From Deltaproteobacteria bacterium (lineage in GTDB: Bacteria; Desulfobacterota; Binatia; DP-6): 64,000 bases of DNA. Each line of letters starts with the position of its first letter. Within the stretch, counting starts at the first letter, position 1. The notes under the pieces are model-generated. The model saw nothing but the letters and a program-made list of their open reading frames with translations. It had not been told where the DNA came from and searched no databases. Below, in pieces: positions 1-15,600 of this stretch. Location: contig VBKJ01000127.1 in the NCBI GenBank assembly GCA_005879795.1, positions 7,427 to 71,426 on the forward strand, given 5' to 3'. Position numbers and translations under genes: made by a program.

Positions 1-138
1 CGCACCATCCCCGAGGACGTGAAGCGGAAGATCGCCGCGCTCGGGCAGCCGAACGTCACGGTGGACGTGGTCTGGGACCCGCCCTGGCACCCCTCGCGCA
101 TCAGCCCCGACGGGAAGCAGAAGCTCGGGCTGGCGTGA
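1..138 (+). CDS. C-terminal fragment of a DUF59-family (SufT/PaaD-like) Fe-S cluster assembly protein. The gene begins upstream of the window.
   Basis: In-frame translation ends ...VTVDVVWDPPWHPSRISPDGKQKLGLA, then TGA at 136-138. The DPPW..P.RIS motif is typical of DUF59 C-termini. Confidence 0.5.
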   Translation, partial: RTIPEDVKRKIAALGQPNVTVDVVWDPPWHPSRISPDGKQKLGLA

Positions 139-224
139 GCGGGCGCACCGGACGCCGGTCGCCGAGTCGCCAGCTCGGGCCTTGCATTTGCGGCCGGAAG
201 TAGAGTACGTAAACGGCCCCTTTT

Positions 225-1457
225 TTGCGGCAGCGGACGACTCCTGTGCCTCGATTGCTCGATCCTCCACAAGATTACCGAAGGGAGAGTCTCCGCTCGT
301 GTGCGGAGACGCCCGCGCCTCGGGAGATGGCTAATGGGAACGGGGCGCCTCGCGTCTTCGTCAGTGCTCCAGGCTCCGCGCCCGGCTCGAGTGATCTGCT
401 GGTCTCGTTTCTCCGGGTTGCGGCCGCCGCGGCGCGCACCACCACCGGCGCCAGTCGTGCGGCAGCCGCCCTCCCGGTGGACGCTGCGTCCGGTGCGCAC
501 TCACTGATCATACAGCGGGAGGGCAGCCTGCCGCCGCTCCCCGGCGGCCTGATTCGTCTCGTGGCGCGGTCGGTGCGCGGCGGCCGCAGGCTCTCGCTCG
601 AGGACCCTGGCGGCCCGGCGGCTCTTGCGACCCTGGCAGCACAGGCTGGGGCCCGCGTGATGGCGGCGGTATCCTTGCGGGTGGAGGGCGCGGAGGGATG
701 CCTGCTGGCCGCGCGCGACACGAGGCGGCCCTTCTCGCCGGCCGAGCTGGCGGGGCTCGAGGGTGTGGCGCAGTCCGCAGCGCTCGGAGTCGCCGAGGCC
801 CGGGCGTTGGTGAATACGGACCGCCGGCGTTTCGCCCGCGAGCTGCACGATACCTTCGGCCAGACGCTCACGGCTCTCGTCTTCGCGGTCGATGAGCTCG
901 AACGTGGACTCCAGAGCGTCGAGGAGCGCCGGCTGACATCAGCGGTGCGCTCGCATGCGTTGAAGGCGTTGGACGACATGCGAGATGTGATCGCCGCCGT
1001 CAGGCGAACGGAGGGAGAGCAGGAGCGGTGGCGGAGAGTCCTCGACCTGGCGAAGGATCTCTCGCAGTCGGGCATCCAGGTCCGCGTCCACAAGGATCTG
1101 CCCGAACCGCTCCCGGCGGGGCTGGTGGAGTGCCTGTACGAAGTCGCCCGCGAAGCGCTGTTGAACGTCAAGCGTCACGCCCGAGCCCGGAATGTACACG
1201 TGCTGCTCTGGCAGGACGAGCGAAAGCTGGAGGTCATGGTCTCGGATGACGGGCAGGGACTGCGGCCGGAGGAGCTGGGAACGGGCTGGGGAGGCTTCGG
1301 TCTCCGCATGATGCAGGAGCGACTGGAGGAAGTCGGTGGGGCGTTCATCGTCGAGAGTACCGGCGCGCGCGGAACCCGGGTCATCGCGCGCATACCCTGG
1401 ACCGGAGGGGAGAGATCGCACTCGCGGGCGTCGATTGCGCGTCGTCCTGGCGGATGA
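225..1457 (+). CDS. Sensor histidine kinase with a GAF-like N-terminus, a HisKA_3 (NarX-type) dimerisation domain and a HATPase_c domain. The start is uncertain; ATG 327 is an alternative.
   Basis: H-box ARELHDTFGQTLTAL. ATPase motifs LLNVKRHARA...DDGQGL...GFGLRMMQERLEEVGGAF. The RR gene overlaps its stop by 23 nt. Confidence 0.75.
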   Translation: MRQRTTPVPRLLDPPQDYRRESLRSCAETPAPREMANGNGAPRVFVSAPGSAPGSSDLLVSFLRVAAAAARTTTGASRAAAALPVDAASGAHSLIIQREGSLPPLPGGLIRLVARSVRGGRRLSLEDPGGPAALATLAAQAGARVMAAVSLRVEGAEGCLLAARDTRRPFSPAELAGLEGVAQSAALGVAEARALVNTDRRRFARELHDTFGQTLTALVFAVDELERGLQSVEERRLTSAVRSHALKALDDMRDVIAAVRRTEGEQERWRRVLDLAKDLSQSGIQVRVHKDLPEPLPAGLVECLYEVAREALLNVKRHARARNVHVLLWQDERKLEVMVSDDGQGLRPEELGTGWGGFGLRMMQERLEEVGGAFIVESTGARGTRVIARIPWTGGERSHSRASIARRPGG

Positions 1458-2061
1458 TCACCCGGTCGTCCGGGCCGGGCTGAGGCACATCCTCGATTCA
1501 GGCGATACGATCGAGGTCGTCGCCGAGGCGGAAGACGGCCGAACCCTTCTCCGGCGGGTCCAGGCCCTGAGTCCGGACGTCGTGGTGATGGACGTTTCCA
1601 TGCCCGAGCTGAACGGGATAGAGGCTACGCGGGCGATCCGCCGGCAGTTCCCCACGACGCGGGTCCTCGTGCTCTCGGTTCACGGTGCGGAGGCGGTCGT
1701 CCTGGATGCCGTTGCGGCGGGGGCTGCCGGATACCTGCTGAAGGAAACGGCCACCGAGGAGCTGCAGCGGGCGGTCTCGGCGGTGGCCAGAGGCGAGGGT
1801 TACTTCTCGCCTGGCGTGGCCGGCCTGCTCGTCAACCGGCTGAACGAGCGCGCCCGGCAGCGGCCGCTCCTGAGCGCCCGTGAGCGGGAGGTCGTCCAGC
1901 TCATCAGCGAAGGGGAACGGCTCGGTCAGATCGCGGCCAAGCTCTTCGTCAGCATCGCGACGGTGAAGAGCCACCGGGCGAATGCGATGCGTAAGCTCAG
2001 CATCCGCACGACGGCCGACCTGATCCGCTACGCGATCCGCGGCGGTCTCTCGCCCCTCTGA
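1435..2061 (+). CDS. NarL/LuxR-family response regulator (REC + LuxR HTH)
   Basis: TTG start gives MRVVLADDHPVVRAGL. A receiver domain is followed by the HTH LSAREREVVQLISEGERLGQIAAKLFVSIATVKSHRANAMRKL. The ORF-track start at 1336 lies inside the kinase and is unlikely. Confidence 0.85.
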   Translation: MRVVLADDHPVVRAGLRHILDSGDTIEVVAEAEDGRTLLRRVQALSPDVVVMDVSMPELNGIEATRAIRRQFPTTRVLVLSVHGAEAVVLDAVAAGAAGYLLKETATEELQRAVSAVARGEGYFSPGVAGLLVNRLNERARQRPLLSAREREVVQLISEGERLGQIAAKLFVSIATVKSHRANAMRKLSIRTTADLIRYAIRGGLSPL

Positions 2062-2167
2062 GGCCAGCGGCCCGCGGCGGTGGCCGGGGGCCGTCGCCCT
2101 GATCCTCCTCCTTCGAACGAACCCTCAACCCTCCGAACGCCGAGAGCGAAATCCCGCGCAAGTCGAA

Positions 2168-2767
2168 TTGCGGGCACGAGACGCCCTCTATAGCATCCGC
2201 ACATTCATGATCCCCACCGGTATTCGGTTTCGCAACGCCAAGGGCAAGCCTCCGCCCTCGAGCCGCGAAGAGGTGACGCCCGAGGTGTCGCTCAGAGACG
2301 ATCCCGCCGCCGACTCGCTGGGTTTGCTCGAGCTGGGACTCGCCCTCGAGCGCAAGTTCCGCGTCGTGCCTCGTCCGTCCATCCTCGAGCGCCTGCGCAT
2401 CTACCTCCTCGCGGTGGTGCAGGCGCTCGTCCCCGGCCCGGAGACGGCGGCAGCTGCTCCGCAGACTCGGGCCGGGCGCTTCTCGGCAAGGGTCGTCCCT
2501 GCTGCGGGCGATTCGAGCAGAAGCCTTCAGCGCGCGGGCTGGCTCACGCCCTATGCCATAGAGACGATCGCCGAGCACGCCCTCCACGCCGGCCCCGGCG
2601 CCCGGCTCGAGATGACGTTGCCGTCGAGTGTCAGCGATACCGAGCTGGCGTTGCTTCGGGACGAGTTTGCCTGGCTCGGCGAGCGGGGCGTCCAGGCGAG
2701 CGTTCGTCGGGACTACAGTATCGCACTGATCGAGGAACACCCCATCCCCCCCCGCCCGGCGGTCTGA
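2168..2767 (+). CDS. Hypothetical protein with an acyl-carrier-protein-like phosphopantetheine-attachment motif
   Basis: Coding-like GC3. The segment EEVTPEVSLRDDPAADSLGLLELGLALERKF matches the ACP helix-2 pattern (DSL..EL..ALE..F). The start could be ATG 2207. An overlapping antisense ORF is not favoured. Confidence 0.35.
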   Translation: MRARDALYSIRTFMIPTGIRFRNAKGKPPPSSREEVTPEVSLRDDPAADSLGLLELGLALERKFRVVPRPSILERLRIYLLAVVQALVPGPETAAAAPQTRAGRFSARVVPAAGDSSRSLQRAGWLTPYAIETIAEHALHAGPGARLEMTLPSSVSDTELALLRDEFAWLGERGVQASVRRDYSIALIEEHPIPPRPAV

Positions 2768-2935
2768 CCGTCCGCTGGCGCGCCGCTCGAGGCCTCCGCC
2801 ACCCTTGAGGCCGGTGGCGGGGACCTCGGGCGGGTCCAGTCACGGGCCACGTCGTCGCGGCGACGCGATTTCGGCACGGCCGGTGGCGGCGGTTTACCTT
2901 TGCCGGGCGCGCGGCGACCGGTGTAGAGAAGGCGC

Positions 2936-4966
2936 GTGCCTCCCGCGGGTCGCAGTCCCGGAGCCCGCGCGGCGCCGCGCGCGGCGCCGCCGCCCGCCTC
3001 CGCCGCGCAGCGGCGGCCGCTCCCGATCGCGCTCACCGCCGTGTGGTGGGTCGTCCTCGCCGTGCTGCTCGTGCAGAAGGGGCGTGCCCTCGAGCAGAAG
3101 ATCACGTGGTACCTCGCGGTCGACCAGTTCGGGTACGCGACGTTCGCGCACGACCTCCTGCGCGGCCGTGTCTTCCACGAGTGGGCGCCCGGCGAGGCGC
3201 TCAAGAGCCGGCTGCCGCCGCGCGCCGACGTCCTCGTCCAGAGCTACGTATGGGACCGCGGCCGAATCTACTCGCGCTATGCCCCGGGCTTCCCGATCCT
3301 GCTCGCCGGCTGGCTCGCGCTCTTCGGCGACGACAGTGCGCACTACCTGAACCCGCTCCTCTTCGTCGCCGTCGTCCTGCTGGTGATCGCCCTCCAGCGC
3401 CGGCTCTTCCACTCGCGGTGGCGGGCGCTCATGGGCGGCGCGCTCCTCGTGCTGTTCGCGGGCAACGGGTTCGCGGGCAGCAACGTGAATCTCTGGGGCC
3501 TCACGCTGACGCGCGACATCTCGGCGCACGCCGTCGCGCTCGCCGGGCTCGTGCTGCTCGTGCCGTGGGGCGCCCGCCGACTGGGACCGCGCCGCGCCGC
3601 GGCTGCGGGCCTGGCGCTCGGGTTCACCGTCTCGATCCGTCCCGACGGCGTGCTCTACCTCGTGCCGGCGACGCTGCTCGCTCTCGTACGGTGGCGGCGG
3701 GAGCGCGCGCGGGGCGGCGCCCTCGCGCGCGCGCTCGCCGCGGGCGTCCTCGGCGTCGCGCTCGGCGTCGCGCCCTCGCTCGCGTTCTACTGGGCCGCGA
3801 CGGGGAACCCGTTCCGGGCCACGCAGAGCATGGAAGCGCAGGATTTTCTCAGCGAGACGCCCCGCCCGGGCAGCGCGGTCGCCATGGCGGACGCCGGCGG
3901 CGTCAAGGTCGCCTATCCGCCCCAGGGCTGGCACGGCGGCACGGCGGTGCCCGTCCAGGGCGGCGGGCTCAGGCTCGCCAACTTCCCGCGCACGTTCGAG
4001 GAGAACTGGCAGCTCATCCAGGCGACGTACGGCCGGCTCTTCCTCGTGCTCGCGATGTGGGGAGCGTGCGTCGCGCTCGCGCTGCGGCCGATCGTCTTCC
4101 TGCTCACGGTGCCTTACGCGGCGCTCGCGGTGCTGCTCTACAGCTGCTGGACGACGCCGCAAATGCGCTACCTCATCGGCGCGAGCGTGCTCCTCCCGGT
4201 CCTCGTGGTCGAGGGCCTCATGGGGACCTTCGACCTGGTGCGTCTGATGGCCCGCCGGCGGGAGGAATGGCCGCCGGTCGCGTTTGCGGGCGGCATCGGC
4301 GTGGCGCTTCTCCTGGGCGTCGTCATGAGCCTCCACACGTCGCCACCGGCCGCCATGGCGTCGTCACATGTCGGCGCCTTCGTGCGGGCGATCCCCTGGC
4401 TCGTCCCCGGCGCTGCGGGTGTCGGCCTCCTCGTCGCGGCCGGCTGGCCCCGGCGGCGCGCGGCGGGGTTCGTCGCCCCGGTCCTCGGGCTCGTGCTCGC
4501 GGCCGCAGCGATCGCCGGCGATACGAGCACACTCGGGCGCCGGGCGAGGTTCCAGAAGCCCGAGATGACCTACGCGCGGGAGAACCTGAGGCGACTCGTG
4601 CCGCCGCACGCCGTCGTCATCACCACCGAGGACGTCGGCCGTCCGGCCGAGAACATCGAGTACTATGGCGGCATCCACGCGCTCTACCTGACCGACCTGA
4701 CGCGCTGGCGGCTCGGCGTGCGCGACGCCGCCGCGCTCCTGCTGCGCTCCGGTATGCCGCCGTATCTCTTCATCCCGTTCACGCAGCCGGACCGCGAGCA
4801 GATGCTCGCCGAGCTCGCCGAGTTCCAGGTGGAGCAGGCGGCCGACATTCCCGCGCCGCAGGCGATCGGCTACTTCGTGGCGGCGCCGTTCCACCGCGGC
4901 GTGCGGATGCTTCTCTACCGGATCTCCACGCCCGGCGCCGCAGACCGAGGCGCCCCTGACAGCTAA
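2936..4966 (+). CDS. Polytopic membrane protein, a GT-C-fold glycosyltransferase-like protein of the PMT/ArnT-like family
   Basis: More than 10 predicted TM helices. The first loop carries VDQFGYATFAHDLLRG...WDRGRIYSRYAPGFPILLAGW, typical of PMT_2/ArnT-type GT-C enzymes. It ends at TAA 4964-4966. Confidence 0.5.
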   Translation: MPPAGRSPGARAAPRAAPPPASAAQRRPLPIALTAVWWVVLAVLLVQKGRALEQKITWYLAVDQFGYATFAHDLLRGRVFHEWAPGEALKSRLPPRADVLVQSYVWDRGRIYSRYAPGFPILLAGWLALFGDDSAHYLNPLLFVAVVLLVIALQRRLFHSRWRALMGGALLVLFAGNGFAGSNVNLWGLTLTRDISAHAVALAGLVLLVPWGARRLGPRRAAAAGLALGFTVSIRPDGVLYLVPATLLALVRWRRERARGGALARALAAGVLGVALGVAPSLAFYWAATGNPFRATQSMEAQDFLSETPRPGSAVAMADAGGVKVAYPPQGWHGGTAVPVQGGGLRLANFPRTFEENWQLIQATYGRLFLVLAMWGACVALALRPIVFLLTVPYAALAVLLYSCWTTPQMRYLIGASVLLPVLVVEGLMGTFDLVRLMARRREEWPPVAFAGGIGVALLLGVVMSLHTSPPAAMASSHVGAFVRAIPWLVPGAAGVGLLVAAGWPRRRAAGFVAPVLGLVLAAAAIAGDTSTLGRRARFQKPEMTYARENLRRLVPPHAVVITTEDVGRPAENIEYYGGIHALYLTDLTRWRLGVRDAAALLLRSGMPPYLFIPFTQPDREQMLAELAEFQVEQAADIPAPQAIGYFVAAPFHRGVRMLLYRISTPGAADRGAPDS

Positions 4967-4974
4967 CTAACTAA
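4964..4974 (+). other. TAACTAACTAA, stop codons in all three forward frames
   Basis: TAA at 4964, 4968 and 4972 covers every + frame. It sits at the boundary between the GT-C gene and a low-GC islet. Confidence 0.6.
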
Positions 4975-5160
4975 CCTCGTAGCGCAGCCCGTGAAGAAGT
5001 CGAAGAGGCTGGGCGAAGAAGCCGCGCGACGGGGCGGGGGCGATCGTCGCCGAGGTTCCCGTGGTAGCCGCCCCGTCGCGGGCGCCGAGCGCGCGTCGAC
5101 GTTGGTCCGCGTGCTGGGTAAGTCAGCCAAGGGGGCGCGCATTCCGTGCCGAGATCCTTA

Positions 5161-5190
5161 TATGGTCATGCTTCATATGGTCATGCTTCA
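5161..5190 (+). repeat. Perfect tandem direct repeat, 2 x 15 bp (TATGGTCATGCTTCA)
   Basis: Read directly from the sequence. A second pair of 11-bp direct repeats (CCCGGGAACGC) lies at about 5227-5253. The region is low-GC, about 52%. Confidence 0.7.
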
Positions 5191-5448
5191 GGACCAAGCA
5201 TTCGGTTTTGCGGAGGAATCTCTCCACCCGGGAACGCCCTTCCCGGGAACGCTCTTCCGGTGGCTCCCTCGCGCAGAGTCTACAGCAAACAGACATCACC
5301 TGAACCCGGTATAGCCTACCGTCCGTGACATCTGCTAACTCTCACAGCGTGGAGCACTTCTCCGGGATGAGCGGCTGCGACAAATCGATCGTGAGGGAGG
5401 GTGGAGTTTCAGAGCGCGGGGCCCGCAGCGGGAGTGACCGGTGCTTTC

Positions 5449-5464
5449 CGAAGACATGTCTTCG
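5449..5464 (+). promoter_or_regulatory. 16-bp perfect palindrome CGAAGACATGTCTTCG, a candidate operator about 25 bp upstream of the peptide ATG
   Basis: Perfect inverted repeat seen in the sequence. It is followed by the consensus SD AAGGAGG (5478-5484), placed 5 nt before ATG 5490. Confidence 0.4.
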
Positions 5465-5489
5465 TCGCGAGGAGAAAAAGGAGGGTTAG

Positions 5490-5783
5490 ATGAGCAAGCT
5501 AGTCGTGGGTCTCGCAGGAATCGTGCTGGGGGTTGGTCTGTTGGTTTCGGCGGCGCGGGTGGTGTCCGCTGCCCCAGTGTGCGGTCATGGCCCATGCGGG
5601 GACGAGGTCGGGCAGTGCGGCCTCAGCGGTAAGGCCAGAGCAGCGTGCTTCAAGACTGCCATAGCCGCTTGCAAAGCCTCGCACGCGGCAGGCGGCTGCA
5701 CGTGCGCCGATCCGGGGTGCTTTACCTGCACCGGCGGTAGCGCATGCGTTTTCGCTTCGCCCTCGGGCGCGTTCCTCGAGTAG
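5490..5783 (+). CDS. Small secreted cysteine-rich protein, 97 aa. It has a signal peptide and 12 Cys plus several His in its roughly 70-aa mature part.
   Basis: Optimal SD and spacing. N-terminus MSKLVVGLAGIVLGVGLLVSAARVVSA. Mature part PVCGHGPCGDEVGQCG...CFTCTGGSAC. GC3-rich codons. TAG at 5781-5783. Confidence 0.7.
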   Translation: MSKLVVGLAGIVLGVGLLVSAARVVSAAPVCGHGPCGDEVGQCGLSGKARAACFKTAIAACKASHAAGGCTCADPGCFTCTGGSACVFASPSGAFLE

Positions 5784-5799
5784 CTACCTTCGTTCTCCC

Positions 5800-5831
5800 G
5801 TCGGGGGCGGGGTGCTGACCCCGCCCCCGAC
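5800..5831 (+). terminator. GC-rich hairpin, a probable intrinsic terminator without a T-tract
   Basis: GTCGGGGGCGGGG-tgctga-CCCCGCCCCCGAC is a perfect 13-bp stem, 17 nt after the peptide stop. Confidence 0.45.
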
Positions 5832-6092
5832 CTGGTGCGCGCTTCCGCGGTGCGGTCCAGCCTGCGCGAGAGGGGAAACGTGTTGGTTGTCGCGCGCCGC
5901 GCGTGAAGTTGCCGCCGCGCGAGCATGACGGAGCCAGAGGCCCTCCGTCCCGCCGTCAGTCCGAGCAGGGTGCGCCGGCCGCGCACGCCGAGCGACTCGC
6001 GGAGGGGGCGGTTTGGGGGACGATCCCTACGTTCGCCTGCCCGCGGGCGCGCGCACGAGCCAAGGTGAGCAGCTACTGACCTGCGGGCGCGA

Positions 6093-8351
6093 CTACTGGC
6101 ACAGGCACGTGGACCCGCTCAGCTGGCAGTGCAGCCCGCAGCCCGAACCGCATGTGGCCCCAGTGTTACACGTGCATGTCGAGGTGCAGCAGGAGGTGCC
6201 GTCGCACTGCTCCCCAGGGTCGACCTGGTGGTTCCCGCACAGGCCGAATCGCTGGGCGAACACGCCCTGATAGTTGCCGTCCTGGCCGTAGCTGTCCCAT
6301 GCGACCACGAACTTCCCGGCTGCGGCCGCGACCGCCGGGCGTCCCTGATCCTCGATGATGTAGCTGTTCACGCGGAACTCACTGGCCAGACGGCCACCCT
6401 GGGCGCCGAAGCGCTGCCCGAAGACCTCTGTCCCGATGCAAGCTTCCTGGCCGGGTCCGTCCCAGGCCACGAGGAACGTGCCGTCCGAGTTCATCGCTAC
6501 TGCCGCGTCCTTCTGGGGATTCGCGGTGAAGCTGTTCACGAGGAACTCGCTCCCCTGGGGCGTCCCCGAGCTGCTGTACCGCTGGCCGAAGATGCCCGCG
6601 CCGTCACCCGCGCCCGCACCCTCCCACACCACCACGAAGTCGCCCGCCCCGTCGGCAGCCACGGCCGGATGCGTTTGATTGGAGGCCGTGGTGGTATTCA
6701 CCCGGAATTCACCCGCGTTACAACCGCCTCTGGGCGTCCCCGCGCTGTCGTAGCGCTGCCCGAAGATGCCGTAGCCGCTGCCGTCCTGTGCGGCGCTGTG
6801 CCACACCACCACGAAGTTGCCCGCGCCGTCGGCCGCCACCGCAGGGGAACCCTGAACGCCGGTCGTGTAGGTGTTCACCCGGAACTCACCACCCTGCGGG
6901 GCCCCCGCGCTGCTGTATCGCTGGCCGAAGATGCCGGCGCTGTCGGTCGCGCCGGGGCCGGCCCAGACCACCTTGAAGTTGCCGAGACCGTCCACCGCCA
7001 CCGCCGGAGTCTGCTGCACCCCGGTCGTGTAGGTGTTGACCCGGAACTCGCTGCCCTGCGGGGTGCCCGCGCTGTCGTACCGTTGGCCGAAGACGCCGGC
7101 GGCGTCGCCCGGGCCGGCTCCGTCCCACACCACCAGGAAGTTTCCGCCGGGGCTCCGCGCCACGCGAGGGTTGTCCTGATAGCCCGTCTTGTACGTGTTC
7201 ACCGCGAACTCGGTACCCTGCCGCGTCCCGGTGCTGTCGTAGCGCTGGCCGAAGATACCGGTGCTCGGGTACCCGTCGCCATTGCCTGAGCCACTCCATA
7301 CCACCACGAAGTTGCCCGTCGCGTCGGCCGCCACGGCCTGAGGATAGCCCTGCACGCCGGTGGTATACGTGTTCACCTGAAATTCGGGGCCGGCGGGGAC
7401 GGACCCGCCGTCGCACGCGTCTCCCACCCCGTCGTGATCGCTATCCACCTGACTCGGATTGTAGACGTTCGGGCAGTTGTCCAGCGGACACGTGTTCGCC
7501 GGAAAGCCTGGATCGCCGAAGCCGTCGCCGTCCGAGTCCTGGCACGTGTCACAGGCGTTCCCGATGCCGTCATGGTCGGTGTCCGCCTGGTCGGGGTTCC
7601 GGATCGAGCGACAGTTGTCGATGCAATCGGCGACACCGTCCCCGTCCGTGTCCCCGCCGCCGACGGCAAAGTAGCGGACCGCCGTATTGGTGAGCGTAAA
7701 GGGGCTCGTGGGGTTGCCGAACCTCCACCCCACGCCGACCGTACCGTCGGCGTTCTCGATTCCGGCAGCCGCCGTCTGTACGCCACTCCCCGCACTCGAG
7801 TATTGGACCTGGATCTCGTGGCGGCTTTCGTAGAGGATGATCTCCCAGGTTGTCTTGGGATTGCCCGTGAACAGCGGCACACGGTCGAACTCGACGATGA
7901 AGCGCCGGTTGGGGGCGGTGCCCAGCGTCTGGTAGTAGATGGCTCCGAAACTGCTCGGGTCGAGATCGGCCCAGAGCCCCGCGACGTCCACGTTCGGGCA
8001 TCCTGGGCTCGGGAGTGGAGTCTGGCCGGTCGGCGCGCTTCCTTCGCCGCCAAAGGTGATGAACCCGTTGCTCGAGACGAATACCTGCGAATTGCTGATC
8101 CCGTAGTAATTGAAGGTGAAGCCGAGCGGCAGCGCGGCGCTTTCCTCATCGTCGCGGAGCACGAGGAGCGTGCCGGTCTGTGAGATGTCGACGAAGGAAT
8201 ACGTCGGCGCATAGGCGTCGAGCGGCGCGATCGTGTCCGAGAACCTGTAGCAGCCCGCGTTGTCGGGCCCGCCCACGGCGGAGGCCGGCCGCGGCGATTC
8301 AAGGACGCCGAGTAGAACGATCAGAGTCGCGGCCGCAGTCCAGTCCCTCAT
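6093..8351 (-). CDS. Large secreted repeat protein, 752 aa. It has a signal peptide, thrombospondin-type-3-like Ca-binding repeats, 7 tandem repeats of about 47 aa, and a C-terminal Myxococcus-type cysteine-rich repeat.
   Basis: N-terminus [25 protein letters not shown]. DxDxDGxxDxxD repeats ([14 protein letters not shown]...[12 protein letters not shown]). Repeat unit [40 protein letters not shown]-terminus [18 protein letters not shown]. Confidence 0.8.
6250..7365 (-). repeat. Intragenic tandem repeats, about 7 x ~141 bp, encoding the ~47-aa units
   Basis: Visible periodicity in both the DNA and the translated sequence. Confidence 0.6.
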
Positions 8352-8655
8352 CTGCTCTCCGATCGTCCCCCAGGGAACGGCCTTCGGCTCGCTACGCCAA
8401 GCTCGGCGGGGGTCTTCGCATCCGCTTGAGCGTCCTCGATCGCAATCTCCTGGGCGCAGGCCCCCCGGCCCCAGGCGTCTCCTGGAAACCGCCCGGTCAC
8501 CCGCGCACCGACAGGTGCTCGTCTACCGCGGGCTGTTCGCGCCCGTCAATCGAACAAAGACGGGAGGGCGGTGGCGAAGGCCATAGAGGGTGCAAGGCGC
8601 TCCTCCGCGACCTCGTCTTCTCGACCCGTTTCGACTACGGGGGTGTGGCAAAGCG

Positions 8656-10566
8656 ATGCTCGCCGCCGCCGCGCTCGCCGGGATCGTGTTCGCCGTTTAC
8701 GCGGCCGGCGCCTGCCCCACGATCTATGTCGGTGACAGCGGCGACCTGGTCACCGCGGTTCACGTCTTGGGCATCCCGCATCCGACCGGCTACCCGCTCT
8801 ACGTGCTCCTCGGCAAGCTCTGGTCGGTCCTAATTCCCGTGGGCACGGTGGCCTGGCGGATGAGCCTCTTCAGCGCCGTCTGCGCCGCAGCGGCTTGCGG
8901 GGCATTGTATCGGCTCTGCCGGAGCCTGGCGCTCCACCCGGTTGCGGCGGCCTTCTCGGCGCTCGTCCTGGCGTTCAGTCCGAGCTTCTGGTCGGAGGCG
9001 AACGTCCAGAGGGTATACGGCCTGGGGGCGCTGTTCGTCGTACTGGCCACGACGGCCGCTTGGCGCTGGCAGGTCCGCCGGGACGGGACGAGCCTCGCGT
9101 GGGCATCGTTCCTGTGCGGCTTCGGGGCCGCCAACCATGCCTTCATGGCCGTCTACGCACTTGCCCTCGGCGGTCTCGTACTCACGGCGGAGCCGGCCAT
9201 CCTGCGCTCGCCGCGGCGCGTCGTGGCGGCGGGCGGCGCGTTCTGCGCCGGGCTGCTTCCCTACCTCTACCTGCCGTTGCGCGCGCGGGCGCATCCGCCG
9301 CTCGCTTGGGGCGACCCGCAGACGCTCGGGGGATTCTTCAGGGTGGTCTCGCGCCGGGAGTTCTGGGGCCGTGCGTGGCTGGAAGGTCCGGCCGACCTGC
9401 CGGTCATCGCGGCGAACTACCTCGGGAGCTTCCGCGCGGAGCTCACCTGGGCCGGCGTCGCCCTCGCGCTGGTGGGGACGGCGGCCGGCCGCCGCCGGCG
9501 CTGGCCGGTGCTGCTTCCCGGGCTCGTCATGGCCGGGAACTTCGGGCTGCTGGCCGCTCATGGCTCGCGTCATGACCTCTTCACGTGGCACCGCTACTAC
9601 ATCCCGTCTTACGTGATGGCGGCGTTCCTCGCAGGGCTCGGAGCCCAGGTAGTGCTCGAGCGGCTGCCTGCGATGCTCCGCTTCCTTCCGCTGCTGGTCC
9701 CGGCTCTCCTGCTGGCGCTGGGGTGGCGGACCTTCGACCGGAGCCGCTACCGGATCGCGGAGGACTTCGGCACCGCGGTCCTCCAATCCCTACCCCCGGG
9801 CGCTCACCTCGCTGGGGCGGACGACAACGTGCTCTTCACCCTCATGTATCTTCACCTCGTCGAGCGGCGGCGGCCGGACGTGGACCTCATCATGCAGGGC
9901 GTGGGCGGCATGGAACTGCCGCCGCTGCGCTTCGATCCGGAGAACGACCCGCTGTTCTTCACCCATCACCCCAACTGGGATCATCCGTTGCTCGACGTCG
10001 TGCCCGTGGGACTCGTCTTCCGGGTGTGGCCAGCCCGCCGGCCGCCTCCGCCCGCGGCGGCCACTGCGGAGGCGCTGGACGGCGAGCGCGATCCGCGGGT
10101 GCCGAAGGACGATCTGACGCGAAGCCTGATCGGCCACTTCCACTACATGCGCGGGGTCACCTTCGCGCGCGGCGACTGGCCTCGCGCCCGGCGCGAGTTC
10201 GCGCTCGCCGGCGCGACCGCGGACGACGACGACGTGCTCTTCTACAACCTGGGTCTCGTTTTCCAGCGCAACGGGCTCCTCGAGGACGCTCTCGCCGCCT
10301 TCCGGCGCTCGCACGCGATCAACCCCCGGCACCTGGCGAGCCAGAGACGGCCACGTGCCACCGACCGGGTGGCGGAGCTCACGGCCGAGGAGAAACGGCT
10401 CGAGGCGATCGAAGAGGATCTGGTCCGCGACCCGACACTCCTCCCGCTCGCACCCGACACGCCTGCCTATCACCGGCAGCTGGCGACGCTTCTCGAGCGG
10501 CAGGGCGAGCCCCTGGCCGCGCACGGCCACCGCCTGAAGGCTCTCGAGATCGACGCCGGTGCTTGA
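8656..10566 (+). CDS. DUF2723-family (TMEM260-like) polytopic membrane protein with C-terminal TPR repeats. It is a putative GT-C-type protein glycosyltransferase.
   Basis: Signature YVGDSGDLVTAVHVLGIPHPTGYPLY (the D..E/D....Y.LG..HPPG.PL motif of DUF2723). Multiple TM helices. TPR-like C-terminus (FYNLGLVFQRNGLLEDALAAFRRSHAINP). The start is taken at MLAAAALAG. Confidence 0.7.
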   Translation: MLAAAALAGIVFAVYAAGACPTIYVGDSGDLVTAVHVLGIPHPTGYPLYVLLGKLWSVLIPVGTVAWRMSLFSAVCAAAACGALYRLCRSLALHPVAAAFSALVLAFSPSFWSEANVQRVYGLGALFVVLATTAAWRWQVRRDGTSLAWASFLCGFGAANHAFMAVYALALGGLVLTAEPAILRSPRRVVAAGGAFCAGLLPYLYLPLRARAHPPLAWGDPQTLGGFFRVVSRREFWGRAWLEGPADLPVIAANYLGSFRAELTWAGVALALVGTAAGRRRRWPVLLPGLVMAGNFGLLAAHGSRHDLFTWHRYYIPSYVMAAFLAGLGAQVVLERLPAMLRFLPLLVPALLLALGWRTFDRSRYRIAEDFGTAVLQSLPPGAHLAGADDNVLFTLMYLHLVERRRPDVDLIMQGVGGMELPPLRFDPENDPLFFTHHPNWDHPLLDVVPVGLVFRVWPARRPPPPAAATAEALDGERDPRVPKDDLTRSLIGHFHYMRGVTFARGDWPRARREFALAGATADDDDVLFYNLGLVFQRNGLLEDALAAFRRSHAINPRHLASQRRPRATDRVAELTAEEKRLEAIEEDLVRDPTLLPLAPDTPAYHRQLATLLERQGEPLAAHGHRLKALEIDAGA

Positions 10567-10597
10567 CCGCCTCCGCGCCTCGTCCTACCGGAGTGCG

Positions 10598-12556
10598 ATG
10601 GGCATGCGCTACCTCCTGGTGCTGGCCGCGCTCGCCTCCTTCGCCCTCGGCTGCGGCGCGAACCCCTCGACGGAGCGCATCGTCGTGCTCGGCCTCGATG
10701 GCGTCGACCCGCGGATCGTCGATCTGCTGATGGCCGAAGGCAAGATGCCGAACTTCGCCAGGCTCCGGCAGGAGGGCGCCTACGGGCGCCTGCTCAGCAG
10801 CGAGCCGATGCTCAGCCCGATCCTCTGGACGACCATCGCGACGGGCAAGCCCCCGCAGGAGCACGGCATCGGGCACTTCGTGGCGGTGAACGAGAAGACC
10901 GGCGAGCAGTTGCCCGTGACCAGCCAGATGCGCCGAGTGAAGGCGATCTGGAACATCCTCTCCGACGCCGGCCGGCGCGTGGCCGTGGTCGGTTGGTGGG
11001 CCACGTGGCCGGCGGAGACCGTACGCGGCACGATCGTCAGCGACCACGTCTGCTATCATTTCTTGCTGAGCGACGGGGCCGCAGAGGAAGGGCGCGCGCC
11101 CGGTATCACGTTCCCGGCCGAGGCGCAGGCCGAGCTGGCCCCCCTGATCCGCCGCCCGGGCGACGTGACGCTCGCGGAGGCGGCGCGCTTCGTCCACGTC
11201 GGCGCGGAGGCCTTCGCCCGTCCCTTCGCCTTCAGCGACGACCTGAGCCAGTTCAGGTGGGCGCTGGCGACGGCCGAGAGCTACCGGCGAATCGGCCTGC
11301 ACCTCTGGGAGCGCGAGCGACCGGACCTCCTCATGGTCTACGTCGAGGGCGTCGACTCGACGTCGCACCTGTTCGGACACCTCTTCCGCGCCTCGGGACT
11401 CGCGGGCGAGCTCGCGGCGCAGCAGGAGCACTACGGAGGGACCGTCGAGGAGATGTACCGCTACGCCGACGGCCTCGTCGGCGACTTCACGCGGGTGCTC
11501 GACCGCCGCTCGACCCTCGTCGTGCTGTCCGATCACGGCTTCGAGCTCGGCGCCGTGCCGGATGATCCCAGCAAGACGCGCGACATGCGCCGCGTGAGCG
11601 AGCGCTATCATCGGCGCGAAGGCATCGTCTACCTCTACGGGAACCGCGTGAGGCCCCGCGGCCGCCTCGATCAGCCGAGGCAGCTCGACGTGACGCCGAC
11701 GCTGCTCGCGCTCGCCGGCCTCGCACCCGCGCGGGACATGCCCGGCCGGGTGTGGACGGAAGCGCTCGACGTGAACGCGGAGCCGCCGTCGGTCGCCAGC
11801 TACGAGACAGAACGGTCCCGCGGGGGTGAGGGCGCGACCGACGCGGCCGTCGATCCCGCCATCCTCGAGCGGCTGCGCAGCCTCGGCTACCTGGGCGCGC
11901 GCTCACCGGAGGGCGACCGCAACCTCGCTGCCCTGCACTTCGAGGCCGGGCGCTATGCCGAGGCCGTGGAGGCGTACGAAGGCCTGGTGCGCCAGCACCC
12001 CGAGGACAGCGGCCTGCAGACGAGCCTCGCGGGCGCGCTCGGGGCGCTCGGACGACTCGATGAGGCCCTCGAGCACCTCGACGTGGCGCTCCGGCTCGAC
12101 CCCATCAACCCCGAGGCTCACCACAACCGGGCGGTCATCTTCGAGCGGCAGGGAAAGCGCGAGGCGGCGAGCGAGGAGTACCGCACGGCCCTTCGTTATA
12201 ATCCGCAGTACGAGCCGTCGCGGGAGGCGCTCATCCGTCTGACGGGATCGGCGCGTGTGAACCAGCCCCAGACCGACGCGGAGAAGCTCGCCGCCGCGCT
12301 CGCAGAGCAGGCGAGCCAGGCGGCCCGCCGGGGGGATTATCCGGCGGCCCTGAAGGCGCTCGACGAGGCCGCGCGCATCGCGCCGCGTTACGCTCTCGTG
12401 TACCAGTATCGCTCCAATGTCGCGTACCTCATGGGCGATCGGCAGGGCGCGATTGCCGCACTGCGCAAAGCCCTCGAGCTCGAGCCGGACAACGCGCTCT
12501 ACCGGACCAACCTGCAGCGCCTCGAACAGCCCCACCCCGGGTTCAATCCCGGATAG
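10598..12556 (+). CDS. Lipoprotein of the type-I phosphodiesterase / nucleotide pyrophosphatase (AlkP) superfamily with C-terminal TPR repeats
   Basis: Lipobox LAALASFALGC. Catalytic motifs VVLGLDGVDP, TIATGKPPQEHGI, YVEGVDSTSHLFG and VLSDHGF. TPR repeats at the C-terminus. Confidence 0.75.
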   Translation: MGMRYLLVLAALASFALGCGANPSTERIVVLGLDGVDPRIVDLLMAEGKMPNFARLRQEGAYGRLLSSEPMLSPILWTTIATGKPPQEHGIGHFVAVNEKTGEQLPVTSQMRRVKAIWNILSDAGRRVAVVGWWATWPAETVRGTIVSDHVCYHFLLSDGAAEEGRAPGITFPAEAQAELAPLIRRPGDVTLAEAARFVHVGAEAFARPFAFSDDLSQFRWALATAESYRRIGLHLWERERPDLLMVYVEGVDSTSHLFGHLFRASGLAGELAAQQEHYGGTVEEMYRYADGLVGDFTRVLDRRSTLVVLSDHGFELGAVPDDPSKTRDMRRVSERYHRREGIVYLYGNRVRPRGRLDQPRQLDVTPTLLALAGLAPARDMPGRVWTEALDVNAEPPSVASYETERSRGGEGATDAAVDPAILERLRSLGYLGARSPEGDRNLAALHFEAGRYAEAVEAYEGLVRQHPEDSGLQTSLAGALGALGRLDEALEHLDVALRLDPINPEAHHNRAVIFERQGKREAASEEYRTALRYNPQYEPSREALIRLTGSARVNQPQTDAEKLAAALAEQASQAARRGDYPAALKALDEAARIAPRYALVYQYRSNVAYLMGDRQGAIAALRKALELEPDNALYRTNLQRLEQPHPGFNPG

Positions 12557-12565
12557 CCCGTAGGC

Positions 12566-13513
12566 ATGGCGGTGTCGCATGACCAGGCCAGCGCCGCCGG
12601 GCGGCCGCTCACCGCAGCCGTCGTCGTCAGCTGGGAGGGCGGGGCGACGACCGACCGCTGCGTCGGGTCGCTGCTAGCGCAGGAGAGCGCCCCGGACGCC
12701 GTGCTGGTCGTCGACAACGCCTCGAGTGAGGCCGAACGGGCGAGGCTGCGCGAGGTCTGGGGCGCCCGCGTGCGGCTCATCCTCCTCGATGACAACCGGC
12801 AGTTCGCGGGCGGACTGAACGCAGGCGCGCGCGCGGCCTTCGCGGCTGGTGCGGAGCGCGTCCTGCTGCTGAACAACGACACGGTCCTCGCGCCCGACGC
12901 GCTCCGCCGGCTCGGGGCGGCGCTCGACGCGGCGCCGGCCGCCGGCATCGCGGGCCCGCTGGTCGTGTACGCGGACCAGCCGGGCCGCATCCTCAGCGCC
13001 GGCGAGCGCCATCTCCTTCCGCTCCTCTGCGTACCGCGGACGCTCCTCCGGCATCGACCCGGCGGCGCGACCGGGGCCTATCCGGTCCAGGGCGTGATGG
13101 GCTGCGCGATGCTCGTGACGCGCGCGTGCTTCGAGGCGGTCGGCGGCTTCTCGGAGGAGATCGAGGTCTACTACGAGGACGTCGACTTCTGCGTCGGCGC
13201 GCGCGCCTGCGGCTTCGGCGCCGTCGTCGAGCCGGGTGCCGTCGTGTACCACGATGGGTTCCGCGGCTTCGTGGCCGGGCTCACGCCGTGGGCGGCGTTC
13301 CTGAAGGCGCGCAATCCGTGGCTCCTCGTGCGGCGCCGTGGCGGGCCGGGTACGTGGCTCACGTTCGTGCCGACGTACCTGGTGATGATCGGCGCGAGCG
13401 CCACGCTCTACGCGGTCCGCGGACGCGGCGACATCAGCCGCGCGCTGGCGCGCGGCGCCCTCCACGGGCTGCGGGCCGCGGTCGGGGGCCGGCGGACCCC
13501 GGCGGGTCCATGA
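12566..13513 (+). CDS. Family-2 glycosyltransferase
   Basis: Contains VVVDNASSE...LNAGARAAF...LLLNNDTV and a GT-A DxD-type core. Its stop overlaps the next gene start (ATGA). Confidence 0.8.
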   Translation: MAVSHDQASAAGRPLTAAVVVSWEGGATTDRCVGSLLAQESAPDAVLVVDNASSEAERARLREVWGARVRLILLDDNRQFAGGLNAGARAAFAAGAERVLLLNNDTVLAPDALRRLGAALDAAPAAGIAGPLVVYADQPGRILSAGERHLLPLLCVPRTLLRHRPGGATGAYPVQGVMGCAMLVTRACFEAVGGFSEEIEVYYEDVDFCVGARACGFGAVVEPGAVVYHDGFRGFVAGLTPWAAFLKARNPWLLVRRRGGPGTWLTFVPTYLVMIGASATLYAVRGRGDISRALARGALHGLRAAVGGRRTPAGP

Positions 13514-14643
13514 GGATCTGCTTCGTGAGCCAGCAGGTCGCGGACATCCGCACCGGGGTCGGCATGTACGCGAACGAGCTCATCCCGGCGGTGGCGGAAG
13601 CCGGTCACCGAACGACGCTCGTCGCCCGAGGGCGAGCACCCGGCTGGAAGGACGTCGACCACCACCCGGTGCCCGCGGTGCCGAGGGACCCGACGCCCGA
13701 GGGCTGGCTCTCCTTCGCCTGGATCGCGGCGCGCCGGCTCGGTGCGCTCGGCGGCGCGCGCGCCTTCGACGTGGTCCACTTCCTCGATGCCCGCGAGGCC
13801 TTGTTCGCGCGGCGCGCCGACGGCGCCTCGCTCGTCGGGACGGTACACGACTGCTATCTCGCCGCCGCGTCCCCCGACCTTTCGTACTGGCGCAGCCGCT
13901 ACAGCGACTGGGTGCGCCGCTGGGCCTACCATCGGCTGGCGCGCCGTCTCGAGCGAGCGGCACTTCGCAAGCTCGACGCGCTGATCGCCAACTCCCGCTA
14001 CGTCGAGCGCCAGGTGGGGGCGGCCTACGCGCTGCCGCCCCGGGCGCTGCGCACGATCTACCACGGCTTCCGCTTCGGCTGGGAGGCGCGGTCGGCTGGC
14101 TCGCCGAGCTCGGACGTGCTCTTCGTCGGCGCCAACTTCGAGCGGAAGGGGCTCCCCGGGCTCCTCCGCGCGCTCGCCCGCGTGCGCGAGCGCGTGCCCG
14201 ACGTCCACCTGCACGTCGCGGGCGACCACCCCTCCAGGCGCCACATGGAAGGCCTCGCGGGCGAACTCGGGCTCGCGGAGCACGTGATCTTCCACGGTTT
14301 CCTTCCTCGCGCCGACGTGGCGGCGCTCTATCGGGGGGCCGCCGTGCTGGCGCTTCCGTCCGAGGTGGAGGGCTTCGGCATCACGCTGATGGAGGCGATG
14401 CACTCGGGCGTCCCGGTCATCGCGAGCACGGAGGGGGGGAGCGCGGAGCTGGTGCGCGACGGCTGGAACGGGTTCCTGGTGGCGCCCGGCGACGTCGCCG
14501 CCCTGGCCGACCGGCTCCTCGTGCTCCTCACCGACGGGCAGCGGCGCGCGGAGATGGCGGCGAACGGACGCGAGACGGCGGGGCGCTACCCGCTCGCACG
14601 CATGGTCGCGGAGACGCTTGCCGTCTACCGGGAGGTCGCGTGA
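13510..14643 (+). CDS. Family-1/4 (GT-B) glycosyltransferase
   Basis: N-terminus MRICFVSQQ. C-terminal EX7E region SEVEGFGITLMEAMHSGVPVIAS. Its stop overlaps the next gene start (GTGA). Confidence 0.85.
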   Translation: MRICFVSQQVADIRTGVGMYANELIPAVAEAGHRTTLVARGRAPGWKDVDHHPVPAVPRDPTPEGWLSFAWIAARRLGALGGARAFDVVHFLDAREALFARRADGASLVGTVHDCYLAAASPDLSYWRSRYSDWVRRWAYHRLARRLERAALRKLDALIANSRYVERQVGAAYALPPRALRTIYHGFRFGWEARSAGSPSSDVLFVGANFERKGLPGLLRALARVRERVPDVHLHVAGDHPSRRHMEGLAGELGLAEHVIFHGFLPRADVAALYRGAAVLALPSEVEGFGITLMEAMHSGVPVIASTEGGSAELVRDGWNGFLVAPGDVAALADRLLVLLTDGQRRAEMAANGRETAGRYPLARMVAETLAVYREVA

Positions 14644-15533
14644 GCCGCATCAGCGCGGTCGTCGTCCACTGGCGCGACCCGGCCGCGACGCTCGCCTGCC
14701 TCGCGAGCCTCGCCCGGGAGCCCGAGATCGACGTCCTGGTTGTCGACAACGGCTCGCGCCACCCGCTCGCCGTGCCGCCCGGCGTCCGCTGCGTGCGGAG
14801 CGAGGAGAACCGCGGCTACGCGGGCGGCGCGAACCTCGGCATCCGCGACGCGCTCGCCCGCCGCGCAGAGGTCGTCCTCCTCCTGAACGACGATGTGCGC
14901 GTTCATCCCGGCGCGGCGTGCTCAGCCCTCCGCGTGCTCGACCGGGATCCGCGCGTCGCGGCCGTCGGCGCGAAGGTCCTCGCGCGCGAGGATCCGCAGC
15001 GGCTCTGGCTCGCGTGGGGCCGGGTGACGTACCGGCAGAGCCTCGTCGCCCTCTGCGGGGCAGGAGAGCTCGACGGGCCCGCCTACGCCGAGGAGCGGGA
15101 CGTGGAGTGGATCGCGGGGTGCGCCATGTGGCTCCGCGCCCGTGCGCTCGCCGCGGTCGGCCTCTTCGACGAGGAGTTCTTCGCTTACCACGAGGAGGTG
15201 GAGTGGTGCGCGCGGGCGCGCGCGGCGGGATGGCGTGTCGTCTACTGCCCGGACGCCGTGGTGACGCACGGGGGACGGGGGACGTCGAAGGCCGCCGCGT
15301 CGGTGCGTGTCCGCAAGTACTTCACGGCCCGGAACATGGTCCTCTACGCACGCCGCCACGCGAGCCCGGTGCAACGCGCGAAGCTCGCCTGCTTCCTGGT
15401 CGGCACGCTGCCGCTGCAGCTCCTCTGGAACCTGCCGCGCGGGCGCGCGGGCGAGGTCGTGCTGAAGATGCGCGGCGTGCGCGACGCCCTCACGGGCCGC
15501 CGCCCGCCGTTCGAGGCGCTGGGGTTGCGGTGA
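14640..15533 (+). CDS. Family-2 glycosyltransferase (rhamnosyltransferase-like)
   Basis: Contains AVVVHWRDP...VVDNGS...NRGYAGGANLG...EWIAGCAMWLR. Confidence 0.8.
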   Translation: MSRISAVVVHWRDPAATLACLASLAREPEIDVLVVDNGSRHPLAVPPGVRCVRSEENRGYAGGANLGIRDALARRAEVVLLLNDDVRVHPGAACSALRVLDRDPRVAAVGAKVLAREDPQRLWLAWGRVTYRQSLVALCGAGELDGPAYAEERDVEWIAGCAMWLRARALAAVGLFDEEFFAYHEEVEWCARARAAGWRVVYCPDAVVTHGGRGTSKAAASVRVRKYFTARNMVLYARRHASPVQRAKLACFLVGTLPLQLLWNLPRGRAGEVVLKMRGVRDALTGRRPPFEALGLR

Positions 15534-15600
15534 GCGGCTATCTGGACTCGGCGCGCACGCCGACGTAGCGTGCCCGCCGCCACAGCCGAGGAGGTCTGCC

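Follow-up and report, generated by a model that had tools for sequence, protein, structure and literature searches.

What does a secreted repeat protein do when its gene stands back to back with a bacterial relative of the human glycosyltransferase TMEM260, and could its repeats be what that enzyme modifies? The gene at 6093-8351 raises this question. It lies in a 64,000-nucleotide stretch (hereafter the window) of contig VBKJ01000127.1 from a Deltaproteobacteria bacterium assigned to the Binatia. An earlier note on this DNA had described the product as a giant secreted protein with seven tandem repeats, bracketed by genes for GT-C glycosyltransferases and a candidate glycosylation substrate. 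Our computational analysis found that observation to be real overall, with corrections needed to the size of the protein, the period and Ser/Thr richness of its repeats, and the placing of GT-C genes on both sides. In our best explanation, the protein carries a secreted, multivalent seven-bladed propeller that is coupled, as a client, to the TMEM260-like enzyme and to a phosphodiesterase-type lipoprotein with tetratricopeptide repeats (PDE-TPR); we give this explanation as a whole a probability of about 0.45.

The propeller gene is the sole long codon-biased frame at its position, with a GC content at third codon positions (GC3) of 0.84 and the sequence GGAGAG just upstream of its ATG start, and an identical copy of its product is held in a public protein collection (P0001). 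The protein is 752 residues long and so hardly giant, given that relatives reach ~7,900 residues. Its parts, all on the minus strand, are as follows.

6093..8351, minus strand: gene of the predicted secreted multidomain protein, 752 residues (open reading frame list and translation)
8277..8351, minus strand: predicted signal peptide, residues 1-25 (sequence pattern)
7656..8276, minus strand: N-terminal all-beta domain, distantly NIDO-like, residues 26-232 (Pfam, AlphaFold2)
7407..7655, minus strand: thrombospondin type-3 calcium-binding repeats, residues 233-315 (Pfam TSP_3, PDB sequence search)
7212..7385, minus strand: propeller repeat 1, residues 323-380
7050..7211, minus strand: propeller repeat 2, residues 381-434
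6888..7049, minus strand: propeller repeat 3, residues 435-488
6711..6887, minus strand: propeller repeat 4, residues 489-547
6549..6710, minus strand: propeller repeat 5, residues 548-601
6381..6548, minus strand: propeller repeat 6, residues 602-657
6237..6380, minus strand: propeller repeat 7, residues 658-705
6096..6236, minus strand: Cys-rich C-terminal tail, residues 706-752 (homologue alignment)

The seven tandem repeats begin at residues 323, 381, 435, 489, 548, 602 and 658 and share a mean pairwise identity of 55% (range 35-72%), far beyond chance, and Tandem Repeats Finder detected a 162-nt period in the DNA of the region. The measured period is 54-59 residues rather than the ~47 reported earlier, and the supposed richness in Ser and Thr is marginal, with Ser+Thr making up 14% of the repeat region and Gly 18%. 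The suggestion that the repeats are beta-propeller-like was borne out by structure prediction. In the AlphaFold2 (AF2) model of the full-length protein, residues 316-705 form a beta-propeller with predicted local distance difference test (pLDDT) scores mostly between 85 and 96, in which every repeat contributes three long strands and one short strand, and a Foldseek search returned propellers only. Among 168 related proteins, 149 arrays contained 7 repeats, 29 contained 14 and one contained 21; because arrays are quantised at these sizes, in agreement with the model, the predicted unit is a closed seven-blade propeller. Taken alone, the presence of a secreted seven-blade propeller in the window protein is in our view highly probable.

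The top Foldseek match was 5hx0, a structure of unknown function, followed by the lectins PHL and PLL from Photorhabdus (PDB 5mxh, 8q7u) and CV39L from Chromobacterium (6gxs), with E values for the lectin matches from 1.8e-10 to 5.9e-9 and TM scores of 0.65-0.69 on the target (PHL 5mxh, E=1.8e-10, TM 0.67; CV39L 6gxs, TM 0.69). As predicted for the window protein, these lectins are secreted closed seven-blade propellers built from tandem similar repeats that present repeated surface sites. They differ from the window propeller in sequence (12-16% identity, another blade motif), have no NIDO, TSP3 or Cys-rich context and no known linkage to GT-C genes, and PDB-sequence and Pfam searches with the window protein detected no homology to PLL, PHL or CV39L. 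The consensus of the window's own family, drawn from the 168 related proteins, is EF[RQ]VN[TS][YF]TTxxQxxP[AS]VAxDxxG[DN]FVV[AV]WxSxxQxGSxxG[IV][FY][AG][QR]R[YF]xxxGxPxG, with the strongest conservation at N5 (94%), T8 (88%), Q12 (94%), G23 (97%), W29 (99%) and R44 (90%). In the DSSP assignment of the model, the NTYTTxxQ segment loops from the short EFRV strand to the blade's first long strand, and it probably sits on one propeller face. Because every blade is one copy of the motif, the propeller would show seven near-identical surface sites, and we infer a multivalent binding module whose ligands are most likely glycans.

Sialidases and glycoside hydrolases followed the lectins in the fold search, which raises the alternative that the propeller is itself a carbohydrate-active enzyme of the sialidase, glycoside hydrolase (GH) or lyase type. 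Matches to sialidases, a BT3686-type glycoside hydrolase, GH93/GH43 enzymes and polysaccharide lyases had E values of ~1e-9 to 1e-10, and homologues of the window protein gave faint sub-threshold GH43 matches. However, identity to these enzymes is 8-12% with root-mean-square deviations mostly of 6-17 Å, searches with the window protein and P0061 gave no BNR/Asp-box match, no GH family in Pfam was matched above threshold, and up to ~30 modules occur in giant proteins, as is typical of binding or structural repeats. The decisive point is that all seven blades share one motif, which is not an Asp-box (SxDxGxTW), with no blade carrying catalytic residues of its own; an enzymatic propeller was rejected as the main hypothesis for this reason and we regard it as very unlikely.

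The propeller gene is divergent from a DUF2723 gene, as the earlier note had described, and this gene and the next one lie in direct succession on the opposite strand.

8352..8655, no strand: intergenic region from which the propeller and TMEM260-like genes diverge (sequence)
8656..10566, plus strand: TMEM260-family GT-C glycosyltransferase with C-terminal tetratricopeptide repeats (TPRs) (Pfam, PDB sequence match)
10559..12556, plus strand: PDE-TPR, a lipoprotein with a type I phosphodiesterase/alkaline-phosphatase-superfamily domain and TPRs (Pfam)

The open reading frame of the GT-C gene opens at GTG 8590, with the likely start at ATG 8656, and if this ATG is the start the gene lies 304 bp from the divergent propeller gene. 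Its product matches the Pfam TMEM260-like family PF11028 (DUF2723) with 87 bits and aligns to human TMEM260 (PDB 9rql) with E=1.2e-30 over 413 residues. The GDSGD...HPTGYP segment of the window enzyme aligns with the human GDSGE...HPPGYP, which holds D52 and H67, the catalytic residues of human TMEM260 (bioRxiv 10.64898/2026.03.17.711096). Judged by sequence, the product is a true TMEM260-family enzyme that retains the catalytic Asp and His. The start of the PDE-TPR gene overlaps the stop of the GT-C gene, and its product matches Pfam Phosphodiest with 111 bits and carries about six TPRs and a lipobox (FALG/C). The earlier note had pointed to the promoter architecture of the divergent region (8351-8656); a promoter and terminator scan of 5000-8800 matched no sigma-70-like promoter there and no terminator, and an Rfam scan of 1-16000 returned no family.

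Two samples of loci bear on whether the propeller gene and this enzyme pair are linked elsewhere. The near-syntenic contigs L001 and L002 retain the neighbours seen in the window, and among the loci sampled by their propeller genes PDE-TPR lies next to the propeller in L002, directly beside it in L003, L005, L006, L019 and L040, and farther away in L023. These linked loci come from metagenome-assembled genomes (MAGs) labelled Acidobacteriota, Deltaproteobacteria, Myxococcales and Multivoradales. In the Acidobacteriota MAG locus L003, four co-directional genes encode PDE-TPR, the TMEM260-like enzyme, a PMT_2-type GT-C protein and a propeller protein of 1,389 residues.

The second sample consisted of 80 metagenome loci collected by PDE-TPR alone, which avoids conditioning on the propeller; L086 among them is the contig of the window itself, which leaves 79 loci in which the identity of PDE-TPR ranges from 43% to 75%. 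Many of the contigs are only 2-4 kb long, so that counts from this sample are lower bounds. A TMEM260-like gene stands next to PDE-TPR in at least 39 of the 79 loci, and at least one propeller gene is present in at least 22, mostly directly adjacent. Sixteen propeller arrays begin no more than 1 kb from the enzyme genes, and propeller density falls 8-fold with distance: it is 1.55 per 10 kb inside the first 1 kb and 0.20 per 10 kb between 6 and 12 kb. All-against-all clustering of the neighbouring open reading frames found no other family in more than three loci. The order of the genes is not fixed: it is GT-C, propeller, PDE in L098, PDE, GT-C, propeller in L122, L126 and L134, and in L100 GT-C and PDE are followed by two tandem propeller genes, while the propeller gene is divergent from the enzyme genes in the window and in L115, L130, L137 and L146. 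Adjacency that survives shuffled order and orientation is a standard signature of functional coupling, and the pattern seen here accordingly has the form expected of coupled genes; on this genomic evidence a functional coupling of the propeller protein to the TMEM260-like/PDE-TPR pair is supported. Within these loci PDE-TPR, which the earlier note had overlooked, is the gene that most consistently adjoins propeller genes. All linked propeller proteins have a signal peptide or a lipobox, and their C-terminal ends vary, being Cys-rich, an SLH domain, a hydrophobic anchor or, in L098, a long Ser/Thr linker.

Some loci hold more than one propeller gene. Four propeller paralogues are found downstream of the GT-C/PDE pair in L100 (11024-19379), the last two of them farther downstream than the tandem pair. 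L098 has one propeller gene between the enzyme genes (2951-5041) and a second just after them (about 7100-8914), whose product includes a ~40-residue linker that is nearly all Ser and Thr, of the kind typically targeted by O-glycosylation. Another seven-blade repeat family, FG-GAP/ASPIC, is encoded directly upstream of PDE-TPR in L144 (8138-9772), and in the 1,389-residue protein of L003 (9893-14062) FG-GAP/ASPIC, FN3 and PKD domains are all fused to the present propeller. Propeller proteins more generally may be served by the enzyme pair.

PDE-TPR itself is nearly always found in company with a GT-C-like membrane protein, and this pairing suggests that the two form a unit of enzymes not described before; outside the TPR region its sole solved relative is phosphonoacetate hydrolase (E=7.8e-8). 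In loci where no TMEM260-like gene was detected, PDE-TPR is followed by a multi-pass membrane protein with no Pfam match (L103 11912-13714, L148 11931-13739, L092 5281-6786). The proteins of L103 and L148 carry the motif RLRG[SA]GDS[LI]PTR in an N-terminal loop, which recalls the GDSG catalytic loop, and proteins of this kind may be further GT-C partners of PDE-TPR that have so far escaped recognition.

A model for the coupling is offered by human TMEM260 (GT117), which shares the GT-C core, the catalytic Asp and His and the C-terminal TPR with the window enzyme, and whose clients (plexins, cMET and RON) are, like the candidate client in the window, secreted beta-rich repeat proteins. The human clients likewise have a seven-bladed Sema propeller alongside a Cys-rich PSI domain. 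In the human enzyme, an extended, unfolded strand is gripped by the TPR domain, which offers a neighbouring Thr to the active site (bioRxiv 10.64898/2026.03.17.711096), and the only acceptor proven so far is the IPT domain, at a Thr of its strand B (PMC10214176). Both bacterial enzymes of the pair likewise carry TPRs (Pfam). In the reading that we prefer, the exported, still unfolded repeat chain would be captured in the periplasm by the TPR domains, the GT-C enzyme would O-glycosylate hydroxyl residues from a polyprenol-phosphate sugar before the propeller closes, and the mature propeller would then act as a multivalent, probably glycan-binding surface module. A relation of enzyme to client fits better than a fixed complex because one pair adjoins several diversified secreted paralogues. 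Of this reading, the analysis shows the architecture, the identity of the GT-C enzyme and the gene linkage; the other elements, from secretion to the part played by PDE-TPR, are inferred.

The earlier note had reasoned from the same precedent. The link to glycosylation has gained support beyond what that note had to go on, since the neighbour is a true TMEM260 homologue and the linkage is recurrent, but the IPT precedent is not directly transferable because the window protein has no IPT domain; for the same reason, if the protein is a client, its acceptor would be of a new type. A narrower form of the proposal, which we consider doubtful, would join three genes, those for the propeller, the TMEM260-like GT-C/TPR enzyme and PDE-TPR, in a dedicated bacterial protein-modification system in which the TPRs capture the EFxVN[TS]xTT segment, Thr8 is O-glycosylated up to seven times per propeller, and PDE-TPR adds or trims a phosphodiester-linked group. 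The human TMEM260 pathway has no counterpart of this lipoprotein, which in the bacterial module looks obligatory.

Bacteria offer known cases of a secreted repeat-rich surface protein encoded beside its modifying enzyme, such as HMW1C-HMW1, Aah-AIDA-I and TibC-TibA. The enzymes of these pairs are cytoplasmic GT-B glycosyltransferases or heptosyltransferases that use nucleotide sugars, whereas the window enzyme would be a periplasm-facing GT-C enzyme with a lipid-linked donor. In the literature library that was searched, DUF2723 appeared in the full text of the TMEM260 paper only, titles and abstracts on TMEM260, bacteria and GT-C described no function for a bacterial homologue of this human disease gene, and a search on bacterial TPR O-mannosyltransferases and beta-propellers returned nothing relevant. 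The three-gene arrangement points to a specific candidate client for bacterial TMEM260-like enzymes and to a partner enzyme that had gone unnoticed. If the dedicated three-gene system exists, bacterial homologues of TMEM260 (GT117) would gain their first function and first client, and domain-specific O-glycosylation would have a new acceptor fold.

Gene linkage would be equally expected if the propeller were a lectin-like partner in the pathway rather than its substrate, binding a glycan or glycoconjugate made by the TMEM260-like, PDE-TPR and GT2/GT4 enzymes and, for example, anchoring or organising a surface polysaccharide or glycoprotein layer. The nearest folds are multivalent seven-bladed lectins, the seven near-identical blades have conserved W, Q, N, D and R positions, and in the window the enzyme pair is followed by three further glycosyltransferase genes.

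12566-13513, about 13513-14643 and 14640-15533, plus strand: GT2, GT4 and GT2 genes (Pfam)

The first GT2 product could be a polyprenol-phosphate-sugar synthase that feeds the GT-C enzyme its donor. A tblastn search for these three genes next to the pair found them only in L086, the window's own contig, and in none of the other 79 loci; as they are not conserved with the enzyme pair, they were not counted in the module. Two further points tell against a glycan-binding partner: a single pair can be flanked by diversified and differently anchored paralogues (L100, L098, L117, L126), as expected for one enzyme with many clients, and TPRs on both enzymes fit the recognition of a protein rather than a glycan. 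We see the lectin-like partner as possible but not probable, and favour the enzyme-client reading over it.

Several observations nevertheless weigh against the enzyme-client reading, and some of them suit a third explanation, in which the propeller protein is a surface adhesin or matrix protein of the usual kind whose gene happens to lie in a cluster of envelope genes, and the pair acts on lipids, polysaccharides or other proteins. The linkage is frequent but not obligate. About 45 of the 52 propeller-sampled loci have no enzyme pair nearby, nor do the stand-alone homologues of L083-L085, and in a family of ~39,000 cluster representatives most sampled members are unlinked to the pair; conversely, the pair occurs without a propeller gene on the long contigs L088, L092, L093, L110, L128 and L139. 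The gene also sits in a recombination-prone island of divergent alleles, described below. Coincidence in an envelope cluster does not account well for a linkage that recurs in divergent loci (PDE-TPR identity down to 43-55%) with order and orientation shuffled, for the 8-fold drop in propeller density from <1 kb to >6 kb, or for the lack of any other neighbour family in more than three loci, and we judge it unlikely. The remaining objections concern the acceptor and the ligand. Conserved adjacency, as a genomic signal, speaks for coupling and not for the repeats as acceptor; the conserved Thr residues may have a purely structural role, Ser and Thr together make up an ordinary 14%, and Pfam found no IPT/TIG domain in the window protein. 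The window propeller shares only 12-16% identity with the lectin propellers, and the fold search scores sialidases and glycoside hydrolases about as highly.

The remaining domains of the window protein are consistent with a place outside the cell. Its N-terminus, read from the sequence, consists of MRDW, a hydrophobic stretch ([13 protein letters not shown]) and ESPRPASA/VGG, and the same n-h-c signal pattern is kept in P0003, P0005 and P0007; the protein is thus predicted to be exported by the Sec pathway and to be extracellular, and the earlier note had likewise called it secreted. The domain that follows (residues 26-232) was modelled with confidence by AF2 (pLDDT 89.7, predicted template modelling score 0.89), and a Foldseek search with it found no solved fold that resembles it. 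NIDO (PF06119) matched this domain with 17.2 bits, below the Pfam cut-off of 25, and was matched at E<=0.01 by 8 of 26 homologues (best 8.5e-6), so the domain can be called distantly NIDO-like.

The calcium-binding repeats proposed earlier are well supported. Pfam TSP_3 (PF02412) matched three stretches of the window protein with 26.1 bits against a cut-off of 25, and a PDB sequence search returned COMP (3fby, E=1.6e-29) and thrombospondin-2 (E=4.7e-18) and matched nothing outside this part of the window protein. The DxDxDGxxDxxD calcium motifs with paired Cys are those of the thrombospondin/COMP type-3 repeats (PF02412; PDB 3fby, 1yo8). Unlike those proteins, the window protein has only about three repeats, a bacterial setting and no thrombospondin C-terminal lectin-like domain.

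The Cys-rich tail was likewise upheld, with 12 Cys among the last 48 residues (705-752). It was modelled by AF2 with pLDDT <40, and Pfam gave no Disintegrin (PF00200) match for it. The longer tails of P0005, P0007 and P0010 do match PF00200 (38.3 bits for P0005), and the terminal motif C.SGC..HC.L.GS.C.C(Q/H) is common to the window tail, P0005, P0010 and P0019, so that the window tail looks like a shortened form of the disintegrin-like tail of its closest relatives. The overall build, with a NIDO-like domain, a TSP3 spacer, a propeller and a disulfide-rich tail, is best explained as that of a matrix or adhesion protein.

The earlier note could not name the repeat family, and database searches agree: Pfam and NCBIfam profile searches with one repeat pair, a pure seven-repeat protein and larger homologues found no model that covers the repeat, giving only sub-threshold matches to CopC, GH43, CofB and PDIAV. 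Weak similarity over the repeat was seen for the NCBIfam PDIAV motif-containing lipoprotein (NF053835) and the LIC12048 family lipoprotein (NF038383), and the P[AS]VA strand of the repeat corresponds to the PDIAV motif of NF053835. Scores of 14-30 bits against cut-offs of 90 and 700 place the window protein outside both families (for NF053835, with its cut-off of 90, the window protein scores 14.2 bits and P0061 scores 29.9 bits).

Despite having no name, the repeat is abundant. A phmmer search of 1.84 billion cluster representatives (clusters at 50% identity) returned 39,403 proteins with a limit of E<=1e-3 and 12,156 with one of E<=1e-30. Genomes with the repeat belong to Acidobacteriota, Planctomycetota, Myxococcota, Bacteroidota, Chlamydiae, cyanobacteria and other groups, and the best matches in a genome contig search with the window locus cover the propeller alone, at <=50% identity. 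Relatives range from stand-alone proteins of ~415 residues, consisting of a signal peptide and seven repeats, to proteins of 5,000-7,900 residues with many copies, and the repeat is accompanied by SLH, dockerin, cadherin, RTX, FN3, PKD and FG-GAP domains and by C-terminal anchors. These partner domains and the stand-alone proteins with signal peptides suggest that the repeat is a secreted, surface-displayed module, and by homology it defines a very large family of predicted secreted propeller modules across many phyla. With no Pfam or NCBIfam model, many environmental surface proteins that contain it remain "hypothetical".

The stand-alone seven-repeat proteins P0041, P0051, P0061, P0069, P0101 and P0112 share the C-terminal end Q[IV]VPVELMxFRVE (6 of 6). 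This end is similar to the EFRV strand that opens each repeat and probably supplies the closing strand of blade 7, and it may also be a sorting signal.

On the other side of the propeller gene, the claim that GT-C genes bracket it held for the TMEM260-like gene at 8656-10566 and not for its convergent neighbour, whose GT-C status is unconfirmed.

2936..4966, plus strand: 676-residue multi-pass membrane protein, convergent with the propeller gene (weak NCBIfam match)

Searches of Pfam and the PDB with this product found no match. The NCBIfam model for the LA_3751/LA_3752 putative glycosyltransferase matched it weakly (E=4.6e-5, 22 bits against a cut-off of 200), as did the PMT_2-type protein of L003 by BLASTP (E=0.004), and the gene is kept at the same position in L001. 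The ~1.1 kb downstream of the propeller gene (4967-6092) hold no convincing gene: the open reading frames 4991-5314 (plus strand) and 5585-5986 (minus strand) fail the GC3 test and match no family. This segment matches no Rfam family and has no counterpart in L001, which is otherwise 95% identical.

Elsewhere in the window, the Lon protease encoded at 50374-52839 is 83-87% identical to proteins of Candidatus Binatia MAGs, and the probable source is a soil member of this lineage that lacks a near relative among the GTDB species genomes searched. A JGI metagenome contig (Ga0209470_1003681) is 99.8% identical to the window DNA over 8 kb.

The propeller locus itself varies between close relatives. 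We compared the window allele (6093-8351) with those of L001 (381-2882) and L002 (5752-8223), where the flanking genes are 90-95% identical in DNA, with synonymous divergence (dS) of 0.056 and 0.25. The propeller gene is just 72-74% identical, with dS of 0.55 and 0.91. Positive selection was rejected as the cause of this low orthologue identity, as the ratio of nonsynonymous to synonymous divergence is 0.41 and 0.29 and dS itself is 4-10 times that of the flanks. Such an excess of synonymous divergence indicates allele replacement by recombination, as for surface antigens, and the comparison points to the propeller gene as a recombination-made island of divergent alleles at a conserved locus.

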